This document shows, one piece after another, positions 1 through 26,303 of a stretch of 55,481 nucleotides of DNA. Location: the NCBI GenBank assembly GCA_964555805.1, contig CAZKTX010000001.1, positions 1 through 55,481 on the forward strand, given 5' to 3'. Position numbers and translations under genes: made by a program. The stretch is from an uncultured Rikenellaceae bacterium. GTDB lineage: Bacteria > Bacteroidota > Bacteroidia > Bacteroidales > VadinHA17. How positions within the stretch are numbered: the stretch's first letter is position 1; each line of letters opens with the position of its first letter. A model generated the notes under the pieces. That model was not told where the DNA came from and searched no databases. It saw nothing but the letters and a program-made list of their open reading frames with translations.

Positions 1-52
1 TTCCGCAATAAAAAGATCCTCCCGATCCGGTTATCAAATAGACTATCTTCAT
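1..52 (-). CDS. 5' end of an unidentified gene that runs off the left edge (MKIVYLITGSGGSFYCG...)
   Basis: ATG at 52..50 on the minus strand, open to position 1. Only 17 codons are visible, so no family call is possible. Confidence 0.3.
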   Translation of the reverse strand, partial: MKIVYLITGSGGSFYCG

Positions 53-148: not shown

Positions 149-1267
149 TTATCTGGTTCCAAAAGCAAGCAAACGCCCGTCCTCCGTCAGAACATAAAAC
201 CTGTCAGCTGTAACTGCAGGAGTGCTGCTGACAGGAGAACCAGCATTGAAGTTCCATATCTTTTTGCCGTCAGTCAAGCCGAGCAAATATACATTGCCAT
301 CGGCACTTCCGAAAAGCACTCTGGAGGGAGTTATTACAGCAGAACCGGTTATTCTTCCGTTTGTACGGAATTTCCAGTTAAGCTTCCCTGTAATTATATC
401 ATAACTGTAAAGGTACTTGTCCTCGTTGCCGATTATAACTGAATTCCTTCCGATTGCCGGTATTGCCACAACCGATCCGGTTGTTTCACCTGCAGGTACT
501 TCCCATGCCAATTTCCCTGTGAGCAGATCTACACAGAAGAAATTGCCGTCATAATCGCCGAAGCAGGCTTTACCTCCGGACAGGGCAGGAGAGGAAGCTA
601 TATAAGTTCCTATTTCAATCGTATCTTTTTCCCTACCTGAATAGGCGTCAACAATTCTGATAAACCCGTCGCAACCTCCGAACACTATATTATTGTTGCT
701 GACAGCCGGGGTTCCGTTTACATAATTCATTGTTTCGAGTTTCCACTGAAGCAACCCGTTCGAAGGGTCAACAGAATGAAGGAAATAATCATAACTCCCG
801 ATAACAATTCCGGATTTTTTTCCGGTTGACCAGGCATTTGCAGAACCTGCTATCTGGCCATCGGTCTTGTATTTCCAGGCCAGTTTTCCGCTGGTCTTAT
901 TTATTGCATGAAGGGTTCCGTCATTCAAACCAATAATGACCTTATCATCATAAACCATGGGAGGAGCTTCAGCCGGTGATCCGCCTTCATAACTCCATTT
1001 TTTCTTTCCGTCGGTTCCAACTGCAATCACTGTACCCTTATCGTTGCCAAAGAAAATCATTCCGCCGCTGACAACGGGCGATGATTTTGTCCGGCCCGTG
1101 GCCGGCAAGCTCCATAGCAGTGATGGTTTTGCAGAAACCTCAATAGTTGTATTTCCTGTAAGGTCGGGCTTGCCCCTGAACACTGTCCACTCCTGATCGG
1201 TAGTCTGTGTAAAGCCAGCCAGTGCGGACGAAAGAAAAAAAAGTAATATGAAGCAATGTTTTTTCAT
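149..1267 (-). CDS. Secreted PQQ-like (BamB-type) beta-propeller repeat protein, paralog 1
   Basis: The ORF track gives 149..1324. The likely start is the internal ATG at 1267 (MKKHCFILLFFLSSALAGFTQ signal peptide), which forms an ATGA overlap with the stop of the upstream gene at 1264. It has the W-x-x-FRG entry motif (EWTVFRGKPDLTGN) and repeated G-x-L-x-A/W...TGK..W blades. Confidence 0.8.
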   Translation of the reverse strand: MKKHCFILLFFLSSALAGFTQTTDQEWTVFRGKPDLTGNTTIEVSAKPSLLWSLPATGRTKSSPVVSGGMIFFGNDKGTVIAVGTDGKKKWSYEGGSPAEAPPMVYDDKVIIGLNDGTLHAINKTSGKLAWKYKTDGQIAGSANAWSTGKKSGIVIGSYDYFLHSVDPSNGLLQWKLETMNYVNGTPAVSNNNIVFGGCDGFIRIVDAYSGREKDTIEIGTYIASSPALSGGKACFGDYDGNFFCVDLLTGKLAWEVPAGETTGSVVAIPAIGRNSVIIGNEDKYLYSYDIITGKLNWKFRTNGRITGSAVITPSRVLFGSADGNVYLLGLTDGKKIWNFNAGSPVSSTPAVTADRFYVLTEDGRLLAFGTR

Positions 1268-2340
1268 GACTCCTTGTAATTGTCCATAAATGCCAGTGCT
1301 CCTGTCGGGCATACCTCCACGCACTTCTTAGCAACTGATGCCGGTATTTCAGCGTAATCAACAGTGAGTGGTTCCGAGATTATTGAAACGAATCCCCTGT
1401 TGATGAAGCAGAGAGCCGGTGCGTCAGTTGAATCTTCCACTGCCCTTACACAGAGTCCGCACTTTATACACTTGGCATTTTCAAAAATCAGGCCGGTTTT
1501 TTTGTTTATCTTTTTTGACACCGGGGCGCTGACAAATTTTCCCTTCGGGTCCTTAAGCGAAAACTTCTCCGCCAGGTCCCTTAACCTGCATCCGCCGGAA
1601 GCGCGGCAGTCGCAATGCATGCAGCTTACAGCCTCTTCTGAAGCATCTTTGAAATCCGTTATTTCCCTGTGTCTCCTGATATCCTGAGGACATTCCTTTA
1701 CCCATTCAAGCTGCTCCTTTTCGCTCAGCGAACCAATTCGGGACGAGAATCTTTTTTTGATATCACCTCCGGAAAAAAAAGGAGAAACCTCATACTTTGC
1801 GGTTTGTGGCAGATTTCTGCTTATAAAAATCCTGATGTTCCGGATTGAAACAGGGGTGTCAATCTTCTTTCTTCTGCAGGCATTCTCACAAAAAGCCTTG
1901 CATGTAATGCAATTCAGTTCGCCACCGTTCATTTCGGACCTGATGAGTTCAGCCGCTTCTGCATGTTCTCCAGCAATGAGGAGCCTGTTCATCAGGGGGA
2001 TGTTGTAACCCATGGGACAAACAATCCGGCATTGTGCCTCGCATTCAGCCCTGTGTTCTGAAAGCAGGAGGCTGACTGCCTTTTTCCTCAGGCTGATAAC
2101 CTCTTCTCCCGAGGCGTCAATATCCATTCCCTCCTGTGCGAGAGCGGAACATGAAGGTATGAAATTATTCTTCTTCCTGTCCCTTACAATGCAAACCATG
2201 CATGAAGAGTAGTGTTCCACACCGTCCCTGTGACATAGCGTAGGAATATCTGTTCCCGTAATGCGCGCCGCCTCCAGGATCGTCTGGCCTTCTGTTACCT
2301 CTACTTCCGTATCGTCAATTCTGATCTTCATCTTTTGCAT
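1264..2340 (-). CDS. Cytoplasmic Fe-S protein with an N-terminal plant-type 2Fe-2S domain (NuoG/HydA N-terminus-like) and C-terminal 4Fe-4S motifs; no catalytic domain
   Basis: The N-terminus KIRIDDTEVEVTEGQTILEAARITGTDIPTLCH...CMVC is typical of NuoG/HndD/HydA N-termini. The C-terminus has CIKCGLCVRAV...CVEVCPTGAL, and there is a central Cys cluster CMHCDCRASGGC. The gene overlaps both neighbours. Confidence 0.75.
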   Translation of the reverse strand: MQKMKIRIDDTEVEVTEGQTILEAARITGTDIPTLCHRDGVEHYSSCMVCIVRDRKKNNFIPSCSALAQEGMDIDASGEEVISLRKKAVSLLLSEHRAECEAQCRIVCPMGYNIPLMNRLLIAGEHAEAAELIRSEMNGGELNCITCKAFCENACRRKKIDTPVSIRNIRIFISRNLPQTAKYEVSPFFSGGDIKKRFSSRIGSLSEKEQLEWVKECPQDIRRHREITDFKDASEEAVSCMHCDCRASGGCRLRDLAEKFSLKDPKGKFVSAPVSKKINKKTGLIFENAKCIKCGLCVRAVEDSTDAPALCFINRGFVSIISEPLTVDYAEIPASVAKKCVEVCPTGALAFMDNYKES

Positions 2341-4750
2341 AAACTAGTTCAATTGCATATTCCGGACAAACAATCCTGCAGTTGTCGCATTTTGTACATA
2401 GTAACTGATCAATCTGATGTTTTTCGTATGGCCTGAACGGAATTGCGTCAACCGGACAATCCTGTGCACATTTAGTGCATCCCGTGCACTTGTCTGTAAT
2501 ATCATATTTTACAAGATCCCTGCATCTCTTTGAAGGGCATATTCCGCGGGTGTGGGCTTCGTATTCCTCCCTGAAATATCTCAGTCCGGTAATCACCGGA
2601 TTGGGGGCTGTTTTACCAAGTCCGCAGAGACTTCCTTTCTGTACATCGTAGCATAGCTTTTCAAGTTCGTCCAGCTCTGCTATCGTGGCTTTTCCCTGGG
2701 TGAGCCTTGTCAGAATCTCAAGCATCTGTTTTGTTCCCACCCGGCAGTAGGTGCATTTCCCGCACGACTGCTTGTGGGTGAATTCAAGGAAGTATCTTGC
2801 CATGTCGACCATGCAGTCGGTGTCGTCCAATACAACCATCCCGCCTGAACCCATCATGGCACCCAACCGTGTAAGCTCCTCATAATCCACAGGAGTATCT
2901 GCAAGACGTTCCGGTATGCATCCGCCTGAAGGTCCGCCGATCTGAACAGCCTTGAATGACCTGCCTTCAGCCACTCCGTGGCCGATTTTTTCAACGATTT
3001 CACGGATTGTCGTGCCCATAGGCACTTCAATGAGTCCTCCGCGGGCAACTTTCCCTGCAAGAGCAAACACTTTGGTTCCCTTGCTTTTTTCGGTTCCGAT
3101 ATTGCTGAAAGAACGGGAACCATTGTTTAAAATCCAGGGTACGAGTGAAAGAGTCTCCACATTGTTTACGAGTGTTGGTCGTCCATTGTAACCTCTGACG
3201 GCAGGATAGGGAGGCCTCAGGTGAGGTGTTCCGCGTTTTCCCTCAAGTGAGGCTATAAGTGCAGTCTCTTCACCGCAAACAAAAGCCCCGGCACCTTCAA
3301 ATACATCTATATCAAATGAAAAATCAGATCCAAATATTTTGTTCCCGACTATTCCTTTTTCCCTGCAAATTTTCAGAGCATTCCTAACTCTTGAAACAGC
3401 AAGAGGATATTCCGCCCTTATGTAGAAAATTCCACGGTCGGCCCCTGTGGCAAATCCGGCAATAAGCATTCCTTCAATTATCCTGAATGAAAAAGACTCA
3501 AGAATCATCCTGTCCATAAAAGCCCCCGGGTCACCTTCGTCACCATTGCAGACAACGTATTTGGGTTTCTCTTTAATCGCCGATGAGATCTCCCACTTCT
3601 TTCCGGTCAGAAATCCAGCTCCTCCGCGTCCTCTCAGGCCGCTTTCGGTAATAACCTGGATCACCTCCTTCGGATTATTTGCAAGCAGCACAGCCTTAAG
3701 GGCCCTGAATCCATCGAGAAGTTCATATTCATCGTATGAATCAGGTCTCATGACACCACCGTTGACAGTGGCAATATGGAATTGTTTACTAAGGAAATTA
3801 TTAAGAGTATTTTCCCTTGCGTCAGCAGGGATATTTACCGGACTGTAAACCATATCATCGGACAGGAAGGAATCAGCAAAATTATTTATCCTGAATCTAA
3901 GTTTCTTATCAAAGGACCTCGGCTTAACATGTTTCAGTATAATTTCTTCAACCTGATCTTTTCTGACATTCGTGTACCGGGAACTTCCCTTGCCGTCAGA
4001 AACGATTTCAAGCAGCGGGGTCTGGTTGCATACACCGACACACCCTACTGGTTTAACTTTAATATTAAGATCATAGTACTCTCGTATGTCGAGCAGTTTG
4101 CCAAGCACGTCCCTGCTGCCGCCTGCAACACAACATGATCCGAGTCCGATCCTTACTTCGGCATCATATTCCTCTTTGACAGACTCCTTTTTCTGAATAC
4201 TCTTTTTCCCGGCAGTATTGAGAAAATCCGTGACAATCTCAATCACCTCTGTAGGTTTCACATGTCCGTAAGTCTTTTCGTCTATCTGGACAACAGGGGC
4301 AAGTGTGCAGCATCCCAGGCAGGCAACTTCCTCAATCGAAAACAGATTGTCGGGGGAGCTGTTCCGGTCTTCAGTAATCTTGAGATCCCTTTTGAAAGCT
4401 TCTGATATAAGTTCCGACCCTTTAACATGGCATGCGGTTCCTGCACAGATTTTTATAGTGTGTTTCCCTGACGGGATATGCCTGAACTGGGAGTAGAATG
4501 TAGAGACCCCCGAAATTTGTCCGGGAGTGATATCGGTTACCTTGCAGATATACTTCAGAGCCTCCGAGGGAAGATAATTAAGCCTTTTCTGGACTTCCTG
4601 CAATACAAGTATCACTTTTTCCTTTCCTGTACCTGTTTCCTTTACAACGGAATCGACAACCGATGTGATTTCATCAACGGAAAGCGCGCCGGAATTGCAG
4701 TTGCAGGTTTCGGTATGTTTAGTTTCCTCTTTCAATTTTGTGAAATGCAA
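2315..4750 (-). CDS. NuoE-like :: thioredoxin-like 2Fe-2S :: NuoF-like (FMN/NADH) :: 2x[4Fe-4S] fusion protein (HndA/HndC or HydC/HydB-like diaphorase)
   Basis: NuoE motifs CAGTACHVKG and CLGCCTLAP. Second Trx-like 2Fe-2S domain: GSCCVAGGS and GCVGVCNQTP. NuoF motifs GRGGAGF, CNGDEGDPGAF and SCGKCTYCR. C-terminal CTGCTKCAQDCP and CTKCDNCRIVCP. The start is non-ATG: TTG at 4750, or TTG at 4735 overlapping the upstream stop. Confidence 0.85.
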   Translation of the reverse strand: MHFTKLKEETKHTETCNCNSGALSVDEITSVVDSVVKETGTGKEKVILVLQEVQKRLNYLPSEALKYICKVTDITPGQISGVSTFYSQFRHIPSGKHTIKICAGTACHVKGSELISEAFKRDLKITEDRNSSPDNLFSIEEVACLGCCTLAPVVQIDEKTYGHVKPTEVIEIVTDFLNTAGKKSIQKKESVKEEYDAEVRIGLGSCCVAGGSRDVLGKLLDIREYYDLNIKVKPVGCVGVCNQTPLLEIVSDGKGSSRYTNVRKDQVEEIILKHVKPRSFDKKLRFRINNFADSFLSDDMVYSPVNIPADARENTLNNFLSKQFHIATVNGGVMRPDSYDEYELLDGFRALKAVLLANNPKEVIQVITESGLRGRGGAGFLTGKKWEISSAIKEKPKYVVCNGDEGDPGAFMDRMILESFSFRIIEGMLIAGFATGADRGIFYIRAEYPLAVSRVRNALKICREKGIVGNKIFGSDFSFDIDVFEGAGAFVCGEETALIASLEGKRGTPHLRPPYPAVRGYNGRPTLVNNVETLSLVPWILNNGSRSFSNIGTEKSKGTKVFALAGKVARGGLIEVPMGTTIREIVEKIGHGVAEGRSFKAVQIGGPSGGCIPERLADTPVDYEELTRLGAMMGSGGMVVLDDTDCMVDMARYFLEFTHKQSCGKCTYCRVGTKQMLEILTRLTQGKATIAELDELEKLCYDVQKGSLCGLGKTAPNPVITGLRYFREEYEAHTRGICPSKRCRDLVKYDITDKCTGCTKCAQDCPVDAIPFRPYEKHQIDQLLCTKCDNCRIVCPEYAIELVYAKDEDQN

Positions 4751-6453
4751 AAAATGTTGTTTCTACTGCGTATATAAATACTCTTGTCGGAAAATGCCGG
4801 AGTGCAGTCTGTAGGTTCCCCAATGGGAGATTCAGCAATCAGATTGTACGCAGGTCCGGCATTAACTATATGCATCAAACCGCTGCGGTCGAGAATGTAA
4901 ACCTTTTCATCAGCAATTATGGGTGAAGCATAGAACTGATCCATGAAGTAATGAGTCCACAGAGTGTCTCCTTTAATTGCATCATAGCAGGCAACATCGC
5001 CCACGCCGGTCGCTATAAAAAGATACTGCTCGTTGGCAACAGGGCTCGAAACATCCGATGTGAACATATTGTCTTCCCAGACGATTGACGGACCCGGACC
5101 CGGTTTTAACGCTGCGAGTCTCGAATAATCAGTGACTGCATAAATATGTGTACTGTTAATTGCAAGCGAAGGGGCCACGTCGCCGGAAAGGACTTCAATG
5201 GCCCAGAGTTCTTTCCCTGTAGCCGGATCAAATGCAGCCACTTCCGGGTTGCCGTTTATAAGTACCTGGGGAGTGCCGTTAAATGTCGCAATCGATGGGG
5301 AAGCCCACGTCGATCTTCCTCTTCTGATAGTTTCCCATTTAAGGTCACCGCTGGAGGTATCAAAACCCATCATCGAGACTTTCTCATCCGAATCGAACTG
5401 TACTATAAGGATACCATCGTGCAAAATTACTGAGCAGGAATATCCGTATACATTTGCCGGGGTTCCAATGTTCTTTCCCCATTTAAGTTTACCATCCATG
5501 TCGAGGCAGACAAGATTGCCGTTTGCGAAAATAGCGCATACAGATTTCCCGTCAGTTGCCGCAGTCGGAGCTGCTATCCCTGTTTCGTTATCAGTCTCAG
5601 GGGTAACATCCGGCTGACCGGGAAGACCGGAGGCCGGAGCAGTCCATAGGATCTCCCCGGTGTTCTTGTCGAAGCAGTAAACTTCACAAACACTCCCCTC
5701 TGCACCGGTGAGAAACAGTCTGTCGCCCCATATAACAGGGGAACTTTTTCCGCTTTTTGGGACGCCCGATTTCCATTTTATGTTGGTTCCGCTTTCTGCG
5801 TTCCATTCAACCGGATAACCTGTACCGCCTGCAATTCCCCTTCCATCCTGACCACGGAAATGAGGAAAGTTGACAGGATCGGGGGAAAAGGCTGCGGCCG
5901 ATACTGATAGTGATGCGGCATCCTTATCTCTTTTCTTATCACTCTTTTCGGCTTTTGCGACCCTTTTCCCGGACAGATCAGGCAAATCCTTTCTCAGAAT
6001 GAAAGAAGAGATTATTGCAGCCACAGTCAGGACAGCCACAGTACCCGCAAGGTATTTTGCATAGCGGGCCTTATCCGTGACCTGATCAGATTTTTCTCCC
6101 GGAAGCGAAGGCAGGTTTTTCTCACTCCCGGCTATTAGCCTCTGGCACAGAACAAATATAACAGCACCGGCAATCAGCAGCCAGGAACCCGTTTCAACCT
6201 GCCTTCGGGATGAAAAATAGGCTTTTCGCGCCATCAGATCGAGCGCCCTGACCTGTTCAGCCTTAACGGCATTTTCATGATCCTTGTCAAATTCTTCCTT
6301 CACCGATACAATTGCGGGATTGTCAAGAGGATCGAGAGCCTTCAGCTGGACAATACTCAAAAGCATTGTAAGTGCCACGATGAGGGTAAAAATTCCTGCC
6401 CCGGTGCTAATCCCTCTGAGAATCTTCAGATCCTTTTCGTCAAGCTTTATCAT
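4732..6453 (-). CDS. Membrane-anchored (about 3 TM helices) PQQ-like beta-propeller protein, paralog 2
   Basis: Hydrophobic helices GAGIFTLIVALTMLLSIVQL, SWLLIAGAVIFVLCQRLIA and YLAGTVAVLTVAAIISSFIL, followed by a charged linker. Then the FPHFRGQDGRG entry motif and propeller blades. ATG at 6453. Confidence 0.8.
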   Translation of the reverse strand: MIKLDEKDLKILRGISTGAGIFTLIVALTMLLSIVQLKALDPLDNPAIVSVKEEFDKDHENAVKAEQVRALDLMARKAYFSSRRQVETGSWLLIAGAVIFVLCQRLIAGSEKNLPSLPGEKSDQVTDKARYAKYLAGTVAVLTVAAIISSFILRKDLPDLSGKRVAKAEKSDKKRDKDAASLSVSAAAFSPDPVNFPHFRGQDGRGIAGGTGYPVEWNAESGTNIKWKSGVPKSGKSSPVIWGDRLFLTGAEGSVCEVYCFDKNTGEILWTAPASGLPGQPDVTPETDNETGIAAPTAATDGKSVCAIFANGNLVCLDMDGKLKWGKNIGTPANVYGYSCSVILHDGILIVQFDSDEKVSMMGFDTSSGDLKWETIRRGRSTWASPSIATFNGTPQVLINGNPEVAAFDPATGKELWAIEVLSGDVAPSLAINSTHIYAVTDYSRLAALKPGPGPSIVWEDNMFTSDVSSPVANEQYLFIATGVGDVACYDAIKGDTLWTHYFMDQFYASPIIADEKVYILDRSGLMHIVNAGPAYNLIAESPIGEPTDCTPAFSDKSIYIRSRNNIFCISQN

Positions 6454-7729
6454 TACTAGTCTTATTTAAATGTACAGGGCAATACTGAAAGCATTTTCCA
6501 CAACTGTAGCATTTGCCCTTATGCGGAACATATCCTGTTCTTCTTGTGCGTGTTGACAGCGAGACAAGGCTGAGCCCGAACGATGTTCCGAGAAACAATC
6601 CCATCCAGATGGATCCTTTCCGGAACCGCTCATGGATTTTTGTTTCCTTTTCAAACAGTTCGGCTTCCGTTGTGCCTGCTTCCTTAAATCCCTGGGCTGC
6701 CAGCGAAACAGCCGGGATTCCATTCTCTGCTTCTGCTCTGATTTCCCTGGCCAGCCTTACATCACTGTTCAGTCCGGTGAGAACAGGGGAAAGAGTTCCG
6801 AAAATTATCGCACCTGCTGCTGCGAAGAACGGTACAAGCAGGATATATGTAAGAAATCTTTTTCTCTCCTTTTCGGGGTCTGCCACTGGGCGCACCACAT
6901 CCGAGGGAAGAATTGCATCGTACGGGCAGACATCCTCGCACAGCCTGCAATTAGTGCATTCGGCCGGTGTTATTGTCAGGTGCTTGTTTGAAAACCTTGA
7001 AAATATATTCAGAAGCACACCATAGGGACATAAATATCTGCAATATGGTCTGTTGATGAAAATCCCGGCAACAAGCAGCAAGGCTCCGAAGATCACCATA
7101 GTGTATGGTGCATCGAGCCTGAATATGCCTACAAACGGATCGTAACGGCATATAAGGAACTGGCTTTCAGTTGCGGCCGAAAGAACCGATATTCCAAGAT
7201 AAATGAAAGGAACCGATATCATCACCGACTCAACAACCTTAGGCAGTTTGACTGTTCTGAAACCAACAAGCTCCTGAATGGCTCCGAGAGGGCAGACTCC
7301 CGCACAGAATACCCGGCCGAACAAGAGGGCAAAGAGCAGAGGTATCATGAAGAAAAGGAGAGCCGTAAGAGGGATTGAGTATCCTGAGTTGAAAAGGGCA
7401 AGGGCAACATTCTGAACCGATCCGACGGAACATATGCATCCTTCCCTGAAGAATCCGAAATAGGCGAGAGAAAATACCGAGAGCCAGAGGAGTCCCTGAC
7501 GTGACCTGACTTTTAGAGCAAGCCATGCTGCAACGGATAGAGCAACGATAAGCACTGCGAGATCGATATATTCCCAAACAGGAGCTCTGTCAGCGGGTAC
7601 CTGATGCTCGGGATAGACATACCCGGATGTAAACTCCGGCCTTGGAAATCTTTCCTGTGCAAAAAGCACCGCATGCCAGGCAAGCATGAGGAACAACAGG
7701 ATATATGGCAATTTCTTTTTCACCTTCAC
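6440..7729 (-). CDS. Polytopic membrane Fe-S protein of the NapH/NosR/MauN/CcoG type
   Basis: About 8 hydrophobic segments. Membrane-proximal Cys motifs CAGVCPLGAIQE and CRYLCPYGVLL, plus two classical ferredoxin motifs CTNCRLCEDVCP and CYSCGKCFQYCP. GTG start at 7729 directly abuts the upstream TAG stop. Confidence 0.7.
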   Translation of the reverse strand: MKVKKKLPYILLFLMLAWHAVLFAQERFPRPEFTSGYVYPEHQVPADRAPVWEYIDLAVLIVALSVAAWLALKVRSRQGLLWLSVFSLAYFGFFREGCICSVGSVQNVALALFNSGYSIPLTALLFFMIPLLFALLFGRVFCAGVCPLGAIQELVGFRTVKLPKVVESVMISVPFIYLGISVLSAATESQFLICRYDPFVGIFRLDAPYTMVIFGALLLVAGIFINRPYCRYLCPYGVLLNIFSRFSNKHLTITPAECTNCRLCEDVCPYDAILPSDVVRPVADPEKERKRFLTYILLVPFFAAAGAIIFGTLSPVLTGLNSDVRLAREIRAEAENGIPAVSLAAQGFKEAGTTEAELFEKETKIHERFRKGSIWMGLFLGTSFGLSLVSLSTRTRRTGYVPHKGKCYSCGKCFQYCPVHLNKTSNDKA

Positions 7730-8293
7730 CTAGATCTTTTCTTTTGGAATATACTGAACCTTGTCTGAAATCCTCGAAATGGCATCCGACGGACAACTCC
7801 TTGCAATAGCACATTCGTTGCAATTCACGCAGAGATCCTGATTGATCTGCAGGTACAGGGAACCGTTACCGAAATCCTTGCATCCCTTGACACATTTTCC
7901 GCAAGCGTCGCAAAGTGCTTCATTAATTGTATACTGGAAATAGGGTTCCTCTACGAATTTCCTGTTTATTGCAGCTGTAGGGCAGAGCTGGTTCTCCGCC
8001 CCGGTGCTTATTGTTTTTGTCCCCTGCCTTAGGTAGCCTCCGCAAAGGTCGCAATAGCCGCACATCTGAAAATTGTGCATGCATTTGACAGCAGAAGGGG
8101 TAAGTACACAGTAAGTCTTGCACTGCCCGCATGTGTTGCATTTGTACGGATCTATCTGCCAGACAGTTCCGGCGGTTGTAATCTTGGTCGACAGCACTAC
8201 AGGCAAACCTATAACCGGCACTGCTACAAGGATTTTTCCTGCTTTACGGACAAAATCCCTTCGTGATTGGTACAAATTCCTGTCTTTATTCAT
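7730..8293 (-). CDS. Tat-exported poly-ferredoxin (NapG-like, about four 4Fe-4S motifs)
   Basis: Twin-arginine signal SRRDFVRKAGKILVAVPV. Cluster motifs CNTCGQCKTYC, CGYCDLCGG, CDACGKCVKGC and CVNCNECAIARSCP. ATGA overlap with the upstream small ORF. Confidence 0.75.
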   Translation of the reverse strand: MNKDRNLYQSRRDFVRKAGKILVAVPVIGLPVVLSTKITTAGTVWQIDPYKCNTCGQCKTYCVLTPSAVKCMHNFQMCGYCDLCGGYLRQGTKTISTGAENQLCPTAAINRKFVEEPYFQYTINEALCDACGKCVKGCKDFGNGSLYLQINQDLCVNCNECAIARSCPSDAISRISDKVQYIPKEKI

Positions 8294-8472
8294 CTTTGTG
8301 AGTATTTACCGCAGTCGTTGTCGTCGGAGCAGAGTCCTTTTCCCGCACAGGTTGAGCAGTCTTTCCCGCTTACAGTCCGTGATCCGAGTGCAAGGGCAAG
8401 AAAAGCAAGAAAAGCAAGCAAAAGATTCCTTGCAAGTTTCCTTAGAAACTCAGGTCTTGTCAACTTATTCAT
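8290..8472 (-). CDS. 60-aa signal-anchored Cys-rich peptide (CxxC-x5-C-x5-C), unknown function
   Basis: MNKLTRPEFLRKLARNLLLAFLAFLALALGSRTVSGKDCSTCAGKGLCSDDNDCGKYSQR. ATGA overlaps at both ends (8469/8472 and 8290/8293) argue for a translated, coupled gene. TRPEFLRK resembles a degenerate Tat motif. Confidence 0.5.
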   Translation of the reverse strand: MNKLTRPEFLRKLARNLLLAFLAFLALALGSRTVSGKDCSTCAGKGLCSDDNDCGKYSQR

Positions 8473-9383
8473 TTCCTTTTAAATACATAAAGTTTATTAT
8501 CAAAGCTGTTTGCAGCGTAAATAGTTTCTCCGTCGGCCGAAGCCACGTCAAGCGGGACTGACTGGTTGAATTCATTGTTCACTGAAACGAATTCAACAAA
8601 TTTGCCGTCATGGTCAAGTATTTTGATTCTGTTTATTCCCTTCTCGGCAGTAATGAATCCCTGGGGAATCACTGCAAAATGGGCTGGATTGCAGCATCCG
8701 CAGAACGCGCCGGGAGCTGTTCCCGGTTCTCCGAATTCAGTTGTCTTTATCCCGTCAATTGTCCAGGTTTCAATCCTCCTGTGCCCAGTATTGGCAGCAT
8801 ACACAAGATTATCCGACACAGCCGCATCAAAATATGCGCTCGGAAGAATAAATTTTTCATCTCCCTGACCCATCATTCTGAGAACTTCACCGGACTTGTC
8901 GAGCACAAAAACCCTCTTGTTACCGGCATCAGCAAAAACAACATGCGCCTGACTTGCAGCTACAGAGGTTATTATGCTGTTTCCTTCATATGGACCCCAC
9001 TCGGTTATTAGTTTTCCGGTTGTTGAAATCAGGAGAATAGTCTCCGTTGTGGCCGCGAAAACAGTGTCACCAGTCACTGAAAGAGCAGTTATACCTGTTT
9101 CGGTTTCAAGAGACCACAATAAACCAAGATTCTGATCCAGGGCTGCAACAAATGCATCGCCGCCAAGAAATACTATTCCATTCGTAAGAACAGCTACGGA
9201 AGAAAGTGATCCGGACGGGTTCATGTATGTTTCATCGATGATCCATGCGGCATCATTTTCAACAGTGTTTTTGACCGCCTGTTTATCAGTTCCTCCTGAA
9301 CCCCTTGCCGCATCATAGATCATATATGCCATGAAGGCAAGAATTATTATCAGTGAAAAAATTGCTGCCGGTTTCTTTCCCAT
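8469..9383 (-). CDS. N-terminally anchored six-bladed (NHL-type) beta-propeller protein
   Basis: Likely start is ATG 9383 (MGKKPAAIFSLIIILAFMAYMIY anchor), 1 nt after the upstream stop; the track start 9428 is less likely. Repeated blades follow (VFVLDKSGEVL, RIKILDHDGKFV, KLYVFK), and there is a CGCCNP motif near the C-terminus. Confidence 0.6.
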   Translation of the reverse strand: MGKKPAAIFSLIIILAFMAYMIYDAARGSGGTDKQAVKNTVENDAAWIIDETYMNPSGSLSSVAVLTNGIVFLGGDAFVAALDQNLGLLWSLETETGITALSVTGDTVFAATTETILLISTTGKLITEWGPYEGNSIITSVAASQAHVVFADAGNKRVFVLDKSGEVLRMMGQGDEKFILPSAYFDAAVSDNLVYAANTGHRRIETWTIDGIKTTEFGEPGTAPGAFCGCCNPAHFAVIPQGFITAEKGINRIKILDHDGKFVEFVSVNNEFNQSVPLDVASADGETIYAANSFDNKLYVFKRK

Positions 9384-9384
9384 A

Positions 9385-10845
9385 TCAACTTTCTTTTCCA
9401 ATGTTAAGACAAACCATATTTCTTGCATCCCTCATAATGAGAAAATTTCCGGCTATTGCCATGGGGCCCCATGCCTCGATTCCATCGAGTATGTCAAATT
9501 GTGACACAAGGGTTGCCTTTGAACCCTCGATGTTGAAAATGTAAAGGTTTGCATCATCATCGAGAAGTATCAGTTTATCATCTTTCACAATATAGGGTCC
9601 GAGTCCCCGTCCGAATCTCATGTCCTTGCCGCTACTCCATACAAGAGTTTTCAGATCGGACTTGTTGTATGTAACCAGCTGTTTCTTGAGCGGACCAGCA
9701 TTTTCAGGCATTACCGACCAGACGTAATCACCTGTGAGGATCGGGGTCTGCTGGTCGCTTGAGATACCTTCCATGGCTTTGTGAGTCTCTATTACTGAAA
9801 CTGAGTATCCTGATCCGTCAAAGTCAATCCTTATTTTTCCTCCACCGGCTCCATAGCTGCCGAAAACCGCTATTTCACCATTGCCAAGGTAGAGGGGCGA
9901 GGCAGCTGTTGTCGCCGGGTTCCATTGCTTTGTTTTCCAGAGAACTTTTCCGACATCATTCCCTTCAGCAGCAACACCTACAACGCCTCCAACTGCATTG
10001 TAAACATACATCTTCCTTCCATGGATCACCATTGGAATTATAGAGCCATGCGACATCATCAGGGAGTCGGGGTTCGGCGTGCGCCACAGTATTTCCCCGT
10101 CAGAACAATTCACGCCTATCATCAGGGCCTTTCCGCCTGGAGCAAGAATCGCAACATCGTTATCAATCAGCGGACACTGGCCGGAGTAGAAATCAGGTGT
10201 AATTTTACCTTTGGAACTTCCGGGAACTCCAAACTCCTTTTCCATGTCGATTGTCCAGAAAAGCTTGCCTGAAACCGGATCGACACACATCACATGCGAC
10301 CTGGGTCCAACTGTAACCACGTATTTGTCGGTAACGGCAGGTATGGTTCGGGAATACCCGTGATTACGCTTCATATCGACATAATACCATCTCCTCCATT
10401 GCTCAGTACCTGATTTGAGCGAGAAACAGCGAAGCACATCCGCTTTTCTTCTTTCATCATAATCGAGAATGTATACCCTGCCGTTTTTGACAGCCGGTCC
10501 GGCATAGCCTTCTCCGAGAGTTACTTTCCATACAACGGGAGGACCAGTTGTATCCCACGATTCAGCCATGGCAAAGGTGTCCTTTACTATATTATCGAAA
10601 TTTGCACCCCTGAACCTTGGCCATTCGCCAGGAACCACCCCGTCAAAGGTGCCCAGCGAATCAAAAAACTCACCGACTATAATTTCCTCTGACCTGGGTT
10701 CAATCTTCGGTCTGTTATCCATCCCCGGCACCCTCAGTGCGAGTTCGGCAGGGTAATGATCGTCAGCCAGCCACCAGATAAGTATTGCAGCGAATATAAC
10801 CGCCGATACACCAGTTAAAAGCCTGTTATTTTTCCTTGATATCAT
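9385..10845 (-). CDS. N-terminally anchored PQQ-like beta-propeller protein, paralog 3
   Basis: TM anchor LLTGVSAVIFAAILIWWL. EWPRFRGANFDN entry motif and repeated propeller blades. ATG at 10845 overlaps the upstream gene by 20 nt. Confidence 0.8.
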   Translation of the reverse strand: MISRKNNRLLTGVSAVIFAAILIWWLADDHYPAELALRVPGMDNRPKIEPRSEEIIVGEFFDSLGTFDGVVPGEWPRFRGANFDNIVKDTFAMAESWDTTGPPVVWKVTLGEGYAGPAVKNGRVYILDYDERRKADVLRCFSLKSGTEQWRRWYYVDMKRNHGYSRTIPAVTDKYVVTVGPRSHVMCVDPVSGKLFWTIDMEKEFGVPGSSKGKITPDFYSGQCPLIDNDVAILAPGGKALMIGVNCSDGEILWRTPNPDSLMMSHGSIIPMVIHGRKMYVYNAVGGVVGVAAEGNDVGKVLWKTKQWNPATTAASPLYLGNGEIAVFGSYGAGGGKIRIDFDGSGYSVSVIETHKAMEGISSDQQTPILTGDYVWSVMPENAGPLKKQLVTYNKSDLKTLVWSSGKDMRFGRGLGPYIVKDDKLILLDDDANLYIFNIEGSKATLVSQFDILDGIEAWGPMAIAGNFLIMRDARNMVCLNIGKES

Positions 10846-12157
10846 ATGCGTTCAGAGCTTCACCATGCCTAACATAAAGCACACCGTTGTGGATAACCGG
10901 ATGCGCCCAGTAGGGGCCCGATCCACCTTTAAAATCAAAACTGCTTACAAGATCAAACTTAGCCGGATCAGGTCTTAGCAAACCAACCGAACCCTGCCGT
11001 TCATCAAAGATATACAGCATACCGTCGGCAGAGATAATTGATCCCTTATTTTTCCAGTGTTCCTCCCACATTAGCTTACCAGTTTTCCAGTCGAGGCAGC
11101 ACCAGTTTCCGTTTCCGTTGTTTATCCAGTTCGATCCGTAAAGATAGCCATCAATAACTACAGCCCCTCCATGATGAATATCCAGGATCTCATCCTTCCA
11201 GACAACTGTTGCTTTTTTACCATCGTCTCCTATATCTATCATCAGACCTCCATGATCATAGCCGCCGGTCATATAGATCATATTGCCGGAAATTACCGGT
11301 GTTACGCACAGGATCTGCTTTGTGTCTTCAATATCCTTTTTCCCCAGGGCCTCCCTATGGTTTATTTTCCATAGAATTGATCCGTTCGCCACATCAATTC
11401 CGAAAATGAAGCGCGGTGTTATGTTCACAAGAATTTTAGTCCCGGCTTTCTCTGTCAGTATTGGAGAAAGATAAGAGGCCGGGTCGTTAATGCTCTCCGA
11501 TTTCCAGATCAGTTCACCTGAGTTTTTATCAAGAGCTACTGTTGTAGTCTGAGGGCCTCCAGTAGTAAAATAAAGCTTTTCACCATCAATCATGGGTGAT
11601 TCGGCTATACCCCACGGTCCAAAAGTGCCTCCGTAAGACTCGCTTGCCTTAAGCGACCATATAATTTCGCCTGAGATCCCGTTTATACATGCAAGATCGC
11701 CGAATCCGCTCGATACGTAAACTTTTTCACCATCAACAGTGGGTGTACATCTGCTCTCCGGATATGATTTCTCCCAAGATCTGCCGTAAGGAGTTTTCCA
11801 TCTGATCTTTCCTGATGGATCAAGGGCCACAAGGACGTCATTTGACGCTTCCAGGCCTGTAATATAAACATTGTTATTCCCGAAGGTGGGAGAGGAGTTA
11901 CCCATTGGCAATACATTAGCTGACCAGATAAGTCCGGGGCCACCCTCAGGCCACACTTTAAGCAATCCCTTTTCCAATGATATGCCCGACCTGTCGTCCT
12001 CCCTCCATCCGGTCACTTCATTGTCGTCAATTGTAACCGATGAATTTTCAGATGGATTGACGATAACTTCGGGATCCTGCGAAATAAGATAGAAGACTCC
12101 GTATCCGATGGCGCCGATAATTATCAGGGAAAGCAATATGATAAGAATTTTTCTCAT
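10826..12157 (-). CDS. N-terminally anchored PQQ-like beta-propeller protein, paralog 4 (first gene of the operon)
   Basis: Anchor MRKILIILLSLIIIGAIGYGVFYL. Blades with G-x-I-x-W and KLYF/VYV patterns. A 228-nt non-coding gap lies upstream. Confidence 0.8.
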   Translation of the reverse strand: MRKILIILLSLIIIGAIGYGVFYLISQDPEVIVNPSENSSVTIDDNEVTGWREDDRSGISLEKGLLKVWPEGGPGLIWSANVLPMGNSSPTFGNNNVYITGLEASNDVLVALDPSGKIRWKTPYGRSWEKSYPESRCTPTVDGEKVYVSSGFGDLACINGISGEIIWSLKASESYGGTFGPWGIAESPMIDGEKLYFTTGGPQTTTVALDKNSGELIWKSESINDPASYLSPILTEKAGTKILVNITPRFIFGIDVANGSILWKINHREALGKKDIEDTKQILCVTPVISGNMIYMTGGYDHGGLMIDIGDDGKKATVVWKDEILDIHHGGAVVIDGYLYGSNWINNGNGNWCCLDWKTGKLMWEEHWKNKGSIISADGMLYIFDERQGSVGLLRPDPAKFDLVSSFDFKGGSGPYWAHPVIHNGVLYVRHGEALNAYDIKEK

Positions 12158-12385: not shown

Positions 12386-13141
12386 TCAGGGGTTTCTGAC
12401 TATCCAGGCCTTGAATCCTGCAGCCCTGTTCTTGCTGACGTAAATGCGTTCGGGTGTTTCAATATCAAGAGTAACGAGCAAACGGCTGTCGAACCAGATT
12501 GTCAGATTCCTGACACTGTTCCTGGCAACGATGAACTGTTTGTTCGCCCTTATGAATTCCGCCGGGTTCAATGTGGATTCAATCTGATCAAGCGTCCCGG
12601 GATAGGAATACCAGTTGCCGTTCTTCAGGCAGACTCTTGTATTTTTGTCGGTTGTATAAAAGCATGAAACCTCGTCTATGCCTACCGGTTGAAGCTTATC
12701 CCTGACAGGGATAAGGATTTTGTCGCGGTGTGCCTTTCCGGGGGCAAGCTGGCTGAGCTGGGTAAGGTATTTGAGAATATCCTGTCTGGTGAGCTTTTTA
12801 AATTTTTCAAGTGCCCGCTTAAGGTCATCCGTTTTAATGGGCTTGAGAAGATAATCAATGCTGTTGACCTTGAACGCTTCAATTGCATATTGATCAAAAG
12901 CAGTAGTGAAAATAACAGGAGTTTCTATTGTCAGCCTGTCAAAAATAGAAAAAGCTGATCCGTCGGATAAATGAATATCCATCAGGATCAGATCAGGCAT
13001 TACATTGTTTTTTAACCATCTGACAGTCTGACTTATGCTTTCAGTATAGCCTGCAAGCTCAGTATCAGGTTCAATTTCCTTAAGTATCGCCACAAGGTTC
13101 TCATAGGCTGCAGTTTCATCTTCCACTATCAGGATTCTCAT
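12386..13141 (-). CDS. LytTR-family response regulator (receiver + LytTR DNA-binding domain)
   Basis: MRILIVEDE...DLILMDIHLSDG receiver, then a C-terminal LytTR-like segment (IPVRDKLQPVGIDEVSCFYT...FIRANKQFIV). Confidence 0.9.
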   Translation of the reverse strand: MRILIVEDETAAYENLVAILKEIEPDTELAGYTESISQTVRWLKNNVMPDLILMDIHLSDGSAFSIFDRLTIETPVIFTTAFDQYAIEAFKVNSIDYLLKPIKTDDLKRALEKFKKLTRQDILKYLTQLSQLAPGKAHRDKILIPVRDKLQPVGIDEVSCFYTTDKNTRVCLKNGNWYSYPGTLDQIESTLNPAEFIRANKQFIVARNSVRNLTIWFDSRLLVTLDIETPERIYVSKNRAAGFKAWIVRNP

Positions 13142-14187: not shown

Positions 14188-14236
14188 CTGATTCTGTTTA
14201 TCCTTTGCCAAACCGGATTAGCGGCCAGCAATGATT

Positions 14237-15529
14237 TTATCGCGCCACCTTGACACATTTAATCTGACCCTGATCCCTTATCAGGAGTTTACCACCAGCA
14301 AGTGCAATAGGAGCCCAGTTCTGGGTTGCAAACCTGGCATCAGCGCCTTCGGCAACATTCAGTAGTTTTGCTGAAGCAATCTGCTTGTAACCCGATGGAT
14401 CCGGCTCAATGAGGTAAAGAGAACTGGCTCCGTCTGTTGCAAGCAGAAGGCCGTCGACAAGTATCATACTGCCTTTGTCAAAGTTGGGAGCCCTCATTGT
14501 TTTCCACTTTATCTCTCCATTCATATCCATACAGACAAGACCTTCCCGCTTGCTGTTTGTGGAAAACTGTCCGTAAAAATAGCCATTATGAAGTATGGGA
14601 GGTTTTGTGTGTTCACCAAAGTCATTATGTTTGAAGAGTTCTGTCACAGTGAATGAGCCATCAGACTTCTTATCTACTTTAATCATAACAGTTCCAAGTT
14701 CATACCCGCCAGCCACAAGAATCTTATTCTGACCGGCATCAACAGCGCTTGCGACAGGAATACGGCAATTCCAGTCTGCATATTCCCACAATTTCTTTCC
14801 GTCCTGGGGTTTGATCCCGACTATTTTACCCATTTCGCTGTCCCTCTGCGATGCTGTTACCATCACAACATGATCCTCACCGGAAATCTTTATTATTGCA
14901 GGACTAACATAACCTGCAGCTCCAAGTGAGGGAGTTTTCCATTTGACCGCACCCGTAAGCTTGTTGTATGCAACAACACCAGCCTGGGGAGCCTGTGATG
15001 CAACTATAACCATATCGCCATAAACAAGCGGACACTGCGAAATGGCCCATGTAGGCAGTTTCTCTCCTCCGTAATCGGTCCAGATATTTTTGTTCCAGAC
15101 CGGCTTGTGAGTGTTGATATCAATGCAATAAAGATCACCGTTATGTCCTACTGAATATACAAAATTTCCGTCAACTGTAGGTACATATCTTGAACCCGGA
15201 AACATAACGGACCCCGGAGCGCTGTAACTGAATTTCCAGAGTTCCTTACCCGTGTTGAGGTCAAAACATCTGAGAGTTTCACCTACTTTGTCATCCCTGT
15301 CGAGGAGATATACTTTCCCGGCTTTAATTGCCGGTCCTCCAAAACCTGGTCCCACGTTTGCAGTCCAGAGCACTTCAGGTCCGCCCGCAGGCCATGTGCG
15401 CAGAATGCCCTTTTCAGCCGACTTGCTGTTCCTGTCAGGTCCCAGGAACTGAGGCCAGTCCTGAGCAAGTAAATTCGATATGCTGAGCATTGCAACCAGC
15501 ACTATGGCTAATAATTTTCCTCTTTTCAT
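14237..15529 (-). CDS. Secreted PQQ-like beta-propeller protein, paralog 5
   Basis: Signal peptide MKRGKLLAIVLVAMLSISNLLAQ. DWPQFLGPDRNS entry motif and propeller blades. Its stop is 25 nt upstream of the kinase gene. Confidence 0.8.
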   Translation of the reverse strand: MKRGKLLAIVLVAMLSISNLLAQDWPQFLGPDRNSKSAEKGILRTWPAGGPEVLWTANVGPGFGGPAIKAGKVYLLDRDDKVGETLRCFDLNTGKELWKFSYSAPGSVMFPGSRYVPTVDGNFVYSVGHNGDLYCIDINTHKPVWNKNIWTDYGGEKLPTWAISQCPLVYGDMVIVASQAPQAGVVAYNKLTGAVKWKTPSLGAAGYVSPAIIKISGEDHVVMVTASQRDSEMGKIVGIKPQDGKKLWEYADWNCRIPVASAVDAGQNKILVAGGYELGTVMIKVDKKSDGSFTVTELFKHNDFGEHTKPPILHNGYFYGQFSTNSKREGLVCMDMNGEIKWKTMRAPNFDKGSMILVDGLLLATDGASSLYLIEPDPSGYKQIASAKLLNVAEGADARFATQNWAPIALAGGKLLIRDQGQIKCVKVAR

Positions 15530-21129: not shown

Positions 21130-21138
21130 AATTTCCTT

Positions 21139-21945: not shown

Positions 21946-22096
21946 CGTGCAAAAATAACAAAAGCGCCGGTCTTATAATGCTAAAATACCCATCACCAAG
22001 GCAAATCCTTATGTGAAAAAGAAAAACAGGGATTAAAGACGAAAATGTGGGATGCAAAATGATATATTAATTTGGTTACCAGTAAAATTTGATTAA

Positions 22097-23200: not shown

Positions 23201-23261
23201 AACCAAATAAGTTCAATCGTATTTCAAACTATAAGCAGACCCAAATCCTTCAAAAATCCTG

Positions 23262-24692: not shown

Positions 24693-24693
24693 A

Positions 24694-26211: not shown

Positions 26212-26220
26212 AAAAATTAA

Positions 26221-26293: not shown

Positions 26294-26303
26294 ATGAATA
26301 CCT

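Follow-up and report, generated by a model that had tools for sequence, protein, structure and literature searches.

A conserved Bacteroidales gene cluster combining a bifurcating-type flavoprotein core, a NapH-type membrane protein and periplasmic propellers: a possible electron conduit across the inner membrane

Two families of electron-transfer proteins provide the closest described counterparts of the gene cluster analyzed in this work. In the Nap system, the NapGH pair passes electrons from menaquinol to NapA, NapH shares with NosR and RdhC a module of four transmembrane (TM) segments and two CX3CP motifs, and the first cysteine motif mediates docking of NapF, a cytoplasmic iron-sulfur (Fe-S) protein, on NapH (PMC5928378). 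In the bifurcating Bfu family, a third substrate is fed through BfuA, and BfuB carries an N-terminal 2Fe-2S cluster and a C-terminal 2x4Fe-4S region that are both absent from the non-bifurcating NuoF (PMC9304861). A survey of this family lists 17 unassigned clades and predicts the membrane-bound types Mbh-Bfu and Nuo-Bfu, with no mention of NapH-type partners (PMC9304861). Relatives of both systems are encoded together in a cluster of ten genes, labelled g01 to g10 in order of transcription, at positions 149-12157 of a 55,481-nucleotide (nt) stretch of DNA (hereafter, the window) from an uncultured Rikenellaceae bacterium (contig CAZKTX010000001.1 of assembly GCA_964555805.1). We regard the case as evenly balanced that this cluster specifies an electron conduit across the inner membrane ending in a two-propeller periplasmic enzyme. 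The ten genes are the following:

10826..12157, minus strand: g01, N-terminally anchored PQQ_2-type propeller of 443 amino acids (aa; Pfam PQQ_2, 1.5e-27), a variable accessory paralogue
9385..10845, minus strand: g02, N-terminally anchored eight-bladed propeller of the pyrroloquinoline quinone (PQQ)-like type, 486 aa
8469..9428, minus strand: g03, anchored six-bladed NHL propeller, probable start at 9383
8290..8472, minus strand: g04, 60-aa peptide with a signal-anchor resembling those of the twin-arginine translocation (Tat) pathway and a four-cysteine module
7730..8293, minus strand: g05, Tat-exported NapG-like ferredoxin with four [4Fe-4S] motifs
6440..7729, minus strand: g06, polytopic Fe-S protein of the NapH family (Fer4_5) with family-specific additions
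4732..6453, minus strand: g07, three-TM N-terminal domain followed by a PQQ_2 propeller, 573 aa (Pfam PQQ_2, 3.4e-38)
2315..4750, minus strand: g08, fusion of BfuC (NuoE-like 2Fe-2S) to BfuB
1264..2340, minus strand: g09, BfuA-like Fe-S wire with 22 cysteines and without a catalytic domain
149..1324, minus strand: g10, secreted PQQ-like propeller, probable start at 1267 (Beta-prop_ACSF4, 1.4e-56)

An original prediction, made from the sequence of the window, had described these genes as one operon, and its ten open reading frames were borne out at the positions given, all of them on the minus strand. Its domain labels were reproduced by Pfam and NCBIfam: PQQ_2 in g01, g02, g07 and g10, an NHL-type propeller in g03, a Tat ferredoxin in g05, a Fer4_5 protein of NapH/NosR type in g06, a NuoE-NuoF fusion in g08 and a 2Fe-2S/4Fe-4S protein in g09. 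Read from the coordinates, g01 and g02 overlap by 20 nt; overlaps of 14, 19 and 26 nt join g06 to g07, g07 to g08 and g08 to g09, respectively, ATGA-type overlaps join g03 to g04 and g04 to g05, and g05 and g06 abut. The remaining junctions depend on the choice of start, with a 1-nt gap between g02 and g03 if the conserved Met16 (position 9383) begins g03, and an ATGA-type overlap between g09 and g10 if the conserved MKKHCF (position 1267) begins g10. Hydropathy assigns one N-terminal TM segment to each of g01-g05, about seven to g06 and three to g07, and a CxxCH haem motif is missing from all ten proteins. The predicted layout, with flavin and Fe-S proteins in the cytoplasm, an Fe-S protein of NapH type in the membrane and a ferredoxin exported by Tat, found support, as did the claim that no canonical catalytic subunit is encoded: no Nap, Nos, molybdopterin or haem subunit was seen in the operon and the related loci inspected, where a canonical reductase is likewise absent, and neither NapA/NapB nor MauA/MauB occurs in the window or those loci. 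A scan for sigma-70 promoters and terminators was uninformative (21 sites against 21.6 expected), and the Bacteroidetes -7 box TAnnTTTG showed no window-wide enrichment (42 against 36.5 expected).

The cluster is a conserved system, far beyond a chance arrangement. A scan of GTDB with one genome per species found 210 relatives, and the best 80 of them are all metagenome-assembled genomes (MAGs) labelled Bacteroidales, Rikenellaceae, Bacteroidia or Bacteroidota; their sources are digesters and anaerobic membrane bioreactors, as well as fens and the sediments of lakes. As judged by tblastn of the ten proteins, about 70 Bacteroidales MAG loci were informative, and the order g02-g10 is kept in essentially every locus long enough (~70 Bacteroidales MAG species). 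With protein identities of 40-50%, Marinilabiliales, Calditrichia and further lineages share this order, among them Ancylomarina (L083), a member of the Calditrichia (L084), Marinilabiliaceae bacterium JC017 (L086), loci L085 and L088-L091, and 80 metagenome loci recovered with a 15-sequence alignment. Among these distant loci, the 48 with at least 3.5 kb downstream of g02 hold g03 in 41 cases, g05 in 40 and g06 in 38, which for g02 and g03 is not the company of unrelated genes that the original prediction had named as the mark of generic BamB-like scaffolds; the 26 with at least 9.5 kb downstream hold g07 in 24, g08 in 23 and g10 in 20. Taken by itself, g06 has thousands of relatives, the closest 120 of which are 69-100% identical and come from uncultured Bacteroidales; its database copy has a start site that makes it two residues shorter, and a look-up of the exact sequence gave no match. 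The fraction of invariant positions is 0.44 in g05 and g08 and 0.38 in both g06 and g02, and it falls to 0.18-0.25 in the other propellers (g01, g03, g07 and g10), with g01 at 0.18. Since its invariant fraction equals that of the Fe-S subunits, g02 evolves like a redox or catalytic subunit.

The label of NADH diaphorase given to g08 in the original prediction has to be revised. The best matches of g08 in the PDB are StnB (8oh5_B, 1.6e-201), NfnB (9n5u_B) and the HydB subunits of bifurcating hydrogenases, and these Bfu matches score about 100 orders of magnitude better than NuoF of complex I. Residues 198-799 align end to end with 9bov_B, 8oh5_B and 9n5u_B, with all cysteine motifs conserved, and comprise a 2Fe-2S cluster, a site for flavin mononucleotide (FMN) and reduced nicotinamide adenine dinucleotide (NADH), a 4Fe-4S cluster and a C-terminal 2x4Fe-4S region; the corresponding Pfam matches are a second 2Fe-2S_thioredx stretch, Complex1_51K, NADH_4Fe-4S and Fer4_21. 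The FMN/NADH site and five Fe-S clusters expected of BfuB are thus all present. Residues 30-175 match the NuoE and HoxE models and represent a BfuC domain, here fused to BfuB, and the NuoF equivalog TIGR01959 yields 445.5 bits, below its cut-off of 558.65, the extra clusters being typical of BfuB. In g09, residues 1-175 match the N-termini of StnC, NfnA and HydA, and beyond residue 175 only further cysteine clusters and an Nqo3-like 2x4Fe-4S domain follow, with no catalytic domain. If g09 plays the role of BfuA, the third-substrate site does not lie within it and would have to be g06. To judge from their sequences, g08 and g09 are a Bfu-family core and not a plain diaphorase, with electron bifurcation or confurcation as a putative activity.

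The putative membrane partner of this core retains the hallmarks of NapH, together with several additions. The motifs C142-x3-C146-P and C230-x3-C234-P of g06 align with both CX3CP motifs of Escherichia coli NapH, and its 4Fe-4S motifs (C258..C268-P and C407..C417-P) also align, but they are split by a two-TM insertion of about 130 aa that is absent from NapH. This two-helix insertion, a cleavable signal peptide and an RFPRPEF segment are kept in distant homologues, and invariant cysteines lie in two loops predicted to be periplasmic, REGCICS (C98 and C100) and ICRYDPF (C194). Scores against the NapH models TIGR02163 (60.6 bits) and NF007013 (54.1 bits) stay below the cut-offs of 213.05 and 234, as does that against the NosR model (51.8 bits, cut-off 1000), and Pfam reveals no NosR-type periplasmic FMN_bind domain in g06. 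Sequence searches of the PDB with g06 and g02 returned no significant match. The downstream partner g05 is of the NapG type, with an SRRDFVRK twin-arginine motif and four [4Fe-4S] motifs whose cysteines all align with those of E. coli NapG; a curated NapG model is not among its NCBIfam matches at E <= 0.01.

Two further components, g03 and g04, lead us to revise the description of the propellers as cofactor-less in appearance. The six-bladed NHL fold of g03 is apparent from its phmmer matches in the PDB to the NHL domains of Thin and TRIM71 (2.5e-14), and from an AlphaFold2 (AF2) model (predicted local distance difference test, pLDDT, 82) with a template-modelling score (TM-score) of 0.72-0.78 to the NHL domain of TRIM2. 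Every homologue of g03, in every lineage, carries the motif G-C-C-N-P with its vicinal cysteine pair, in the window as F-C-G-C-C-N-P. Prenylation of this CC motif was considered and dropped, the motif being internal and not C-terminal. The small g04 peptide reads C-x2-C-x5-C-x5-C in the window, and the Bacteroidales consensus, a signal-anchor followed by C-x2-C-P-G-x-G-[IL]-C-x-G-x3-C, is conserved in 73 loci. The twin-arginine motif of the peptide is degenerate in Bacteroidales, where it reads R-x-x-F-L-K-K, but a true RR is retained in other lineages, such as the loci of Ancylomarina and Calditrichia and those of Marinilabiliales-like type (compare L083, L084 and L152). The module is also mobile. 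It is fused to the N-terminus of g05 in nine loci of three lineages, where it sits between a TRREFVRS-type Tat signal and the ferredoxin, and to the C-terminus of g03 in 15 loci, as C-x2-C-x3-C-P, 11 of which have an NHL protein with an RR signal of its own. These fusions link the ferredoxin, the cysteine module and the NHL propeller and, since the module is common to ferredoxin and propeller and goes with Tat export, the four-cysteine module of g04 can be seen as a putative cofactor-bearing connector. As a separate observation, in Marinilabiliaceae bacterium JC017 (L086), and in this locus only, a BioB/PylB/ThiH-like radical S-adenosylmethionine (SAM) gene (7871-8890, 339 aa) follows the NHL propeller gene and precedes a 71-aa open reading frame at the position that the four-cysteine peptide gene takes in related loci; its product could be a cofactor maturase.

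The second propeller of the putative terminal unit, g02, was searched exhaustively with a profile, yielding 251 cluster representatives (50% identity) at E <= 1e-30, among which are fusions to an NHL domain (five proteins), to HEAT repeats and to a cyclase resembling squalene-hopene cyclase (SHC). Fusions of g02 to g03 exist in several lineages. Directly upstream of one such fusion, in L088/L089 (650-4392), lie genes for a metallo-beta-lactamase-fold protein, a PQQ_2 propeller and a protein resembling FGE-sulfatase, EgtB and SenA. The AF2 model of g02 (pLDDT 82) is an eight-bladed propeller whose best Foldseek matches are BamB and tetrathionate hydrolase (E of about 1e-15 to 1e-16, 13-16% identity, TM-score of about 0.5-0.7). 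Its invariant motifs, KRNHGYSRT, GQCPL, TPNPD..MSH, SDQQTP and RFGRGLGP, fall in loops, and by our own DSSP-based assignment of strands to blades on this model the invariant residues lie mainly in the D-A and B-C loops, the usual functional face of propellers. We regard g02 as a candidate catalytic or substrate-binding partner. Known activities were considered for the propellers and set aside: a PQQ enzyme, because scores fall far below the cut-off of 480 of the dehydrogenase model TIGR03075 (31-73 bits for g01, g07 and g10, no match for g02); a NosZ-like copper propeller, because no NosZ-like His-rich signature appears among the invariant residues of g02; and a partnership with a c-type cytochrome, for want of a CxxCH motif.

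The BamB model TIGR03300 (cut-off 285.2) gives 58.5 bits for g01, 25.1 for g02, 71 for g07 and 140.9 for g10; by our own reading of the N-termini, all four lack a lipobox cysteine, and a lone TM anchor opens g01 and g02. Only about half of the Bacteroidales loci have g01, and g01-like paralogues range from zero to six tandem copies upstream of g02 (in L151 and other loci), a variation that suggests diversifying specificity or binding modules. Directly before the Bfu genes there is always g07, which co-occurs with g08 in 23-24 of the 26 distant loci; the charge of its loops (positive-inside rule) gave an ambiguous placement for the side of the membrane on which its propeller lies.

These elements can be assembled into a mechanism. 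NADH, and probably also reduced ferredoxin, would be oxidized at the fused BfuC-BfuB core of g08, and electrons would exit through the BfuA-like Fe-S wire of g09 to the cytoplasmic 2x[4Fe-4S] domain of g06, for which the docking of NapF on NapH offers a precedent. The CX3CP sites of g06, together with its loop cysteines, predicted to face the periplasm, would then carry them across the membrane to the Tat-exported four-cluster ferredoxin g05, the small Tat module g04 and, lastly, the vicinal cysteine pair on an inferred top-face loop of g03. Outward movement of electrons is assisted by the membrane potential. Together, g03 and the eight-bladed g02 would form the terminal catalytic unit, probably a reductive one; g01, g07, g10 and an ATP-binding cassette (ABC)/FtsX transporter encoded downstream in related loci would be accessory and may handle substrate, assembly or product. 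The parts of this proposal are not equally probable. Very probably, g02-g06 make up a single redox module that faces the periplasm; a wiring of the Bfu module to g06 has a slight balance in its favor, and the assignment of catalysis to g03/g02 could fall either way.

The ten-gene extent given by the original prediction is too narrow on both sides, since the operon continues past position 149 into a glycosyltransferase family 4 (GT4) gene and the functional unit reaches to about 21945 upstream. The flanking features are these:

1..52, minus strand: start of the GT4 glycosyltransferase gene, truncated at the end of the window (minus-strand sequence MKIVYLITGSGGSFYCG)
12386-13141, minus strand: LytTR response regulator (Pfam)
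13147-14211, minus strand: His_kinase sensor (Pfam)
14237..15529, minus strand: secreted g01/g02-like propeller paralogue, 430 aa (Pfam PQQ_2)
15709..17514, minus strand: SHC-like class II terpene cyclase, 601 aa (SQHop_cyclase_C/N domains)
17507-18355, minus strand: small alpha-alpha-toroid protein (Pfam, NCBIfam and PDB matches)
18342-19994, minus strand: DUF116 plus short-chain polyprenyl diphosphate synthase (Pfam, NCBIfam and PDB matches)
19951-21129, minus strand: radical SAM protein (Pfam, NCBIfam and PDB matches)
21139-21945, minus strand: 2x4Fe-4S protein (Pfam, NCBIfam and PDB matches)
21950-21957, minus strand: TATTTTTG box, upstream of the cassette

The translated N-terminus of MKIVYLITGSGGSFYCG is that of a 431-aa GT4 protein encoded after g10 in about 50 Bacteroidales loci, where a LolD-like ABC ATPase and an FtsX permease of about 1000 aa follow (e.g. 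L015, 7865-9830). ABC genes come directly after g10 in L088/L089 (14997-16714 in L088), where the g10 stop overlaps the start of the ATPase gene, and in eight metagenome loci (L109, L115, L119, L122, L124, L125, L130 and others of their lineage); in all, an ABC protein of MacB/LolD type and FtsX follow g10 in at least three lineages. In one MAG (L001, 16424-18943; also L017), g10 and GT4 are called as a single 839-aa product, and since one would hardly expect a propeller that is secreted to be fused in this way, the call may stem from a frameshift or from an error in assembly. Homologues of the two-component system adjoin the cluster in 19 loci of two divergent lineages. The 430-aa propeller was rejected as a g02 orthologue and, given its BLASTP identity of 26-29% to both g01 and g02, is treated as another paralogue.

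The cassette at 15709-21945 centers on the 601-aa cyclase, whose closest solved structure is squalene-hopene cyclase (7.9e-18) and which scores 96.9 bits against the squalene-hopene cyclase equivalog, below the cut-off of 431.1. Its P-D-A-D-D-T motif (DxDD) recurs in 21 of 21 homologues, each with one to five QW-like motifs. The same cassette, in the same order and strand, lies directly upstream of g02 in 15 metagenome loci (range L107-L132) of a divergent lineage from gut, rumen and termite metagenomes; in ten of these the cyclase stop falls -19 to +9 nt from the g02 start, and one protein, P0245, joins cyclase, TM helix and g02. No cassette was found within 10 kb in about 64 of the 70 Bacteroidales loci or in any Marinilabiliales-like locus, so that the link may be lineage-restricted or the genes dispersed in those genomes. 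In four of the metagenome loci (L122, L124, L125 and L130), the two-component system and the cyclase cassette are preceded by genes for a channel of the MIP family and for a metallochaperone GTPase resembling CobW/ZigA (e.g. L125, 40-1964), which hints at metal insertion.

The substrate of the proposed enzyme can be addressed only tentatively. That it is a terpenoid lipid made by the linked cassette seems unlikely, and an S-S or sulfur compound, suggested by analogy, is less probable still. On thermodynamic grounds, thiosulfate, polysulfide or another S-S substrate would suit a confurcating donor well, and the resemblance of the g02 fold to tetrathionate hydrolase might point in this direction; Bfu donors usually serve couples near -300 to -450 mV. 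We give little credence to the joint proposal in its entirety, in which g02, g03 and g04 would constitute a new class of periplasmic propeller oxidoreductase, with an active centre of vicinal cysteine pair and four-cysteine module (an Fe-S cluster or a thiol/metal site), driven by the first Bfu complex wired across the membrane via a haem-free NapH-type protein and acting on the product of the SHC-like cyclase.

Several observations weigh against an electron conduit of this kind. Subunit contacts, direction of flow, cofactor binding by the cysteine motifs and catalysis are all read from gene content, motifs, fusions and synteny. In Calditrichia, in Marinilabiliaceae and in 12 of 18 typed distant loci, the g09 orthologue has a GltD-like domain for flavin adenine dinucleotide (FAD) and NAD(P)H, and hence the cytoplasmic module could be a self-sufficient Nfn-type transhydrogenase. 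Clusters without adjacent Bfu genes exist (L085 and L107), and the operon of L090 is interrupted; as seen in L090/L091 (14376-21929), a restriction-modification island on the opposite strand (ResIII helicase and N6_N4 methylase) splits it between g06 and g07, and a TonB receptor and a NosD-like beta-helix protein are encoded upstream. NapH-type proteins are known as menaquinol dehydrogenases, and a mechanism for haem-free transmembrane transfer is not established (PMC5928378). At the periplasmic end, the His after G-C-C-N-P in g03 is not conserved outside Bacteroidales, Pfam finds no CCG or other cofactor domain in g03 and no CCG in g04 (E <= 0.01), the cysteines of both proteins could be structural disulfides, and the position of the g03 cysteine loop on the propeller 'top face' is a model-based placement from strand mapping only. 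The terpenoid connection to the redox cluster has no mechanistic explanation. Finally, seven 'solo' g02-family genes (L087, L092, L094, L120, L135, L136 and L159) lie among housekeeping genes with no NHL, ferredoxin or NapH-like gene after them, so that the coupling of g02 to the cluster is frequent and not obligatory, and the propeller family is not restricted to the system. Pyruvate:ferredoxin oxidoreductase, peptide deformylase and M16 peptidase are encoded next to solo genes, and the solo gene of a Cloacimonetes contig has genes for GT4, GT2, UppS and a methyltransferase as neighbors. The earlier proposal that the propellers are the redox clients of the chain is upheld in part, in that g02 and g03 behave as specific partners of the NapGH-like pair.

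Four other explanations were ranked, and the one placed highest, which we nonetheless hold to be unlikely, is that g06 and g05 take electrons from menaquinol to g03/g02, as NapGH would, with g08/g09 as a separate soluble enzyme of Nfn/Stn type that only balances NADH, NADPH and ferredoxin, for instance for the neighboring radical SAM and terpenoid enzymes, and no wire leading from NADH to the periplasm. The quinol-dehydrogenase core of NapH is indeed kept in g06 (PMC5928378), an FAD/NAD(P)H domain of NfnA type is complete in the long variants of g09, there are clusters with no Bfu genes beside them, and in the PDB g08/g09 are most closely related to StnABC and NfnABC, both soluble complexes. 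Yet the g09 of the window lineage has lost its catalytic domain while keeping about 22 cysteines and an extra C-terminal 2x4Fe-4S domain, and such a wire would have no destination if it lacked a partner; g06 would in turn be left with no donor for its cytoplasmic 2x4Fe-4S domain, and the genes g06-g07-g08-g09 overlap and keep their order in all Bacteroidales loci and in 23 of 26 distant ones. We rank next, as rather unlikely, a role in the maturation or trafficking of a terpenoid lipid, whereby the cassette makes a cyclic terpenoid in the inner membrane that the propellers and the ABC/FtsX transporter bind, tailor and extract (with glycosylation by GT4 in Bacteroidales). The redox chain would then only power one tailoring step or keep the cysteine motifs reduced, and the propellers would handle lipid instead of forming a respiratory end-point. 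The cassette upstream in the window and in the 15 metagenome loci, its translational coupling to g02 in ten, the P0245 fusion, the transporter genes after g10 in at least three lineages, GT4 after g10 in Bacteroidales and the Cloacimonetes solo g02 among glycosyltransferases beside UppS all fit this explanation. It is harder to reconcile with the absence of the cassette within 10 kb of most loci, or with machinery as heavy as a Bfu core and a four-cluster ferredoxin for a tailoring step, and we know of no precedent for a periplasmic Fe-S-dependent modification of terpenoids.

Electrons might also flow inward, from a low-potential periplasmic donor oxidized by the propellers to g08, which would bifurcate them to NAD+ and ferredoxin in an energy-conserving redox loop. 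The gene content is symmetrical as to direction, and Bfu enzymes are reversible, with third substrates that are typically of low potential (PMC9304861). We consider such reverse flow very unlikely, as Pfam and NCBIfam scans identify no known cofactor for the oxidation of H2, formate or CO. Moreover, quinoprotein-type propeller dehydrogenases give high-potential electrons that are unable to reduce NAD+ or ferredoxin. Ranked last, and highly improbable in our view, is the idea of generic scaffolds, with the propellers as BamB-like or envelope assembly factors and the true partner of the NapGH-like and Bfu proteins encoded elsewhere. The best structural matches of g02 are to BamB, solo g02-family genes do exist, and g01-like copies vary from zero to six; against this, scores of 25-141 bits lie far below the 285 of the BamB model, the propellers are tied to the ferredoxin by g02-g03 fusions, by the Tat signals and by where the cysteine module is placed, the conservation of g02 equals that of the redox subunits, and no alternative partner is encoded in any locus inspected.

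Should the proposed wiring hold true, the abundant fermentative Bacteroidales of digesters, sediments and guts would send electrons from NADH and ferredoxin to the periplasm without quinones, haems or molybdopterin, with a bearing on redox balancing and electron sinks in anoxic communities. It would provide a role for the cytoplasmic clusters of NapH-type proteins, a third predicted membrane-bound Bfu type and a possible function for many PQQ-like and NHL propellers, many of them annotated as 'outer membrane protein assembly factor BamB'. The 'SHC-like' clade of cyclases has an open substrate question, for which the operon-level and protein-level cyclase link offers a testable context (PMC12414744); if its terpenoid product were the substrate, this would be the first functional context for that clade. 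Elsewhere in the window, the region at 22097-37472 looks dedicated to sulfated glycans, with a PTE-family hydrolase, a GH3 glycosidase, six tandem sulfatase genes (23262-32619, plus strand) and a gene for a radical SAM/SPASM protein resembling anaerobic sulfatase maturases (32676-34034, minus strand), and positions 39388-42543 encode a hybrid regulator of 1051 aa, in which Reg_prop propeller repeats are combined with a Y_Y_Y domain and a phosphatase domain of SpoIIE type.

Among known systems, NapGH of E. coli and Wolinella succinogenes is the closest to the membrane part of the cluster, which has the NapH core in g06 and the NapG Tat signal and four cluster motifs in g05, and for which NapF docking on NapH serves as a model for g09 on g06 (PMC5928378). 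It differs in that NapA, NapB and NapC are missing, in the signal peptide, loop cysteines C98/C100/C194 and two-TM insertion of g06, which splits the ferredoxin domain, and in the proposed donor, a Bfu flavoprotein instead of or besides quinol. The Nos system requires its ABC transporter for assembly. Like the cluster, it pairs that transporter with a periplasmic propeller, NosZ, served by a NapH-family protein (NosR/NosGH, NosDFY-NosL; for the role of NosR, see PMC5928378), whereas here NosZ, a cupredoxin domain and a His-rich CuZ signature are absent, g06 lacks the FMN-binding domain of NosR and the transporter is of the MacB/FtsX type and not of the ABC-2 type of NosFY. With the Bfu enzymes HydABC, NfnABC and StnABC the cluster shares the FMN site, all BfuB cluster motifs and the BfuC fusion of g08, as well as the BfuA-like N-terminus of g09; g09 is a full NfnA-like protein in some lineages, but the BfuA of the window lineage has no catalytic domain, and the place of the third partner is presumably taken by a membrane protein of NapH type whose end-point lies in the periplasm.

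The methylamine dehydrogenase cluster encodes a MauB propeller, a small Cys-rich Tat subunit, MauA, and the NapG- and NapH-like proteins MauM and MauN. The likeness extends to the name of TIGR02163, the NapH/MauN family, and both clusters combine a propeller and a Cys-rich Tat peptide with NapGH-like proteins; MauG, MauD and MauE are absent here. A light subunit of methylamine dehydrogenase type was considered for g04 and dropped, because g04 has no Trp and tryptophan tryptophylquinone cannot form in it; fused as it is to ferredoxin or NHL propeller, it behaves as an electron-transfer or metal module and not as a catalytic light subunit. In the CCG domain of HdrB and in ferredoxin:thioredoxin reductase, a vicinal cysteine pair and a CxxC-type motif are fed by ferredoxin-like clusters. 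The analogy of g03 and g04 with these Fe-S disulfide reductases is functional only, for the cluster has a periplasmic protein of NHL propeller fold, with no CCG domain found in it. BamB and tetrathionate hydrolase, both eight-bladed and PQQ-free, are the best fold matches of g02, which differs from them in having no lipoprotein signal and in its own invariant loop motifs. The 'SHC-like' cyclase clade comprises proteins of 550-700 aa, for which no substrate is known, from Spirochaetota, Acidobacteriota and the PVC and FCB groups, the latter including Bacteroidota (PMC12414744; PMC7306690), and the 601-aa cyclase, with its DxDD and QW-like motifs, is a candidate member. The cluster was not found described in the literature searched, and the combination of a Bfu core with a NapH-type protein, of a two-propeller end-point bearing a vicinal-cysteine motif with a mobile four-cysteine Tat module, and of both with a terpene-cyclase cassette and an FtsX-type ABC transporter, appears to be undescribed. 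The electron-transfer parts all belong to known families; the terminal enzyme may be categorically new.

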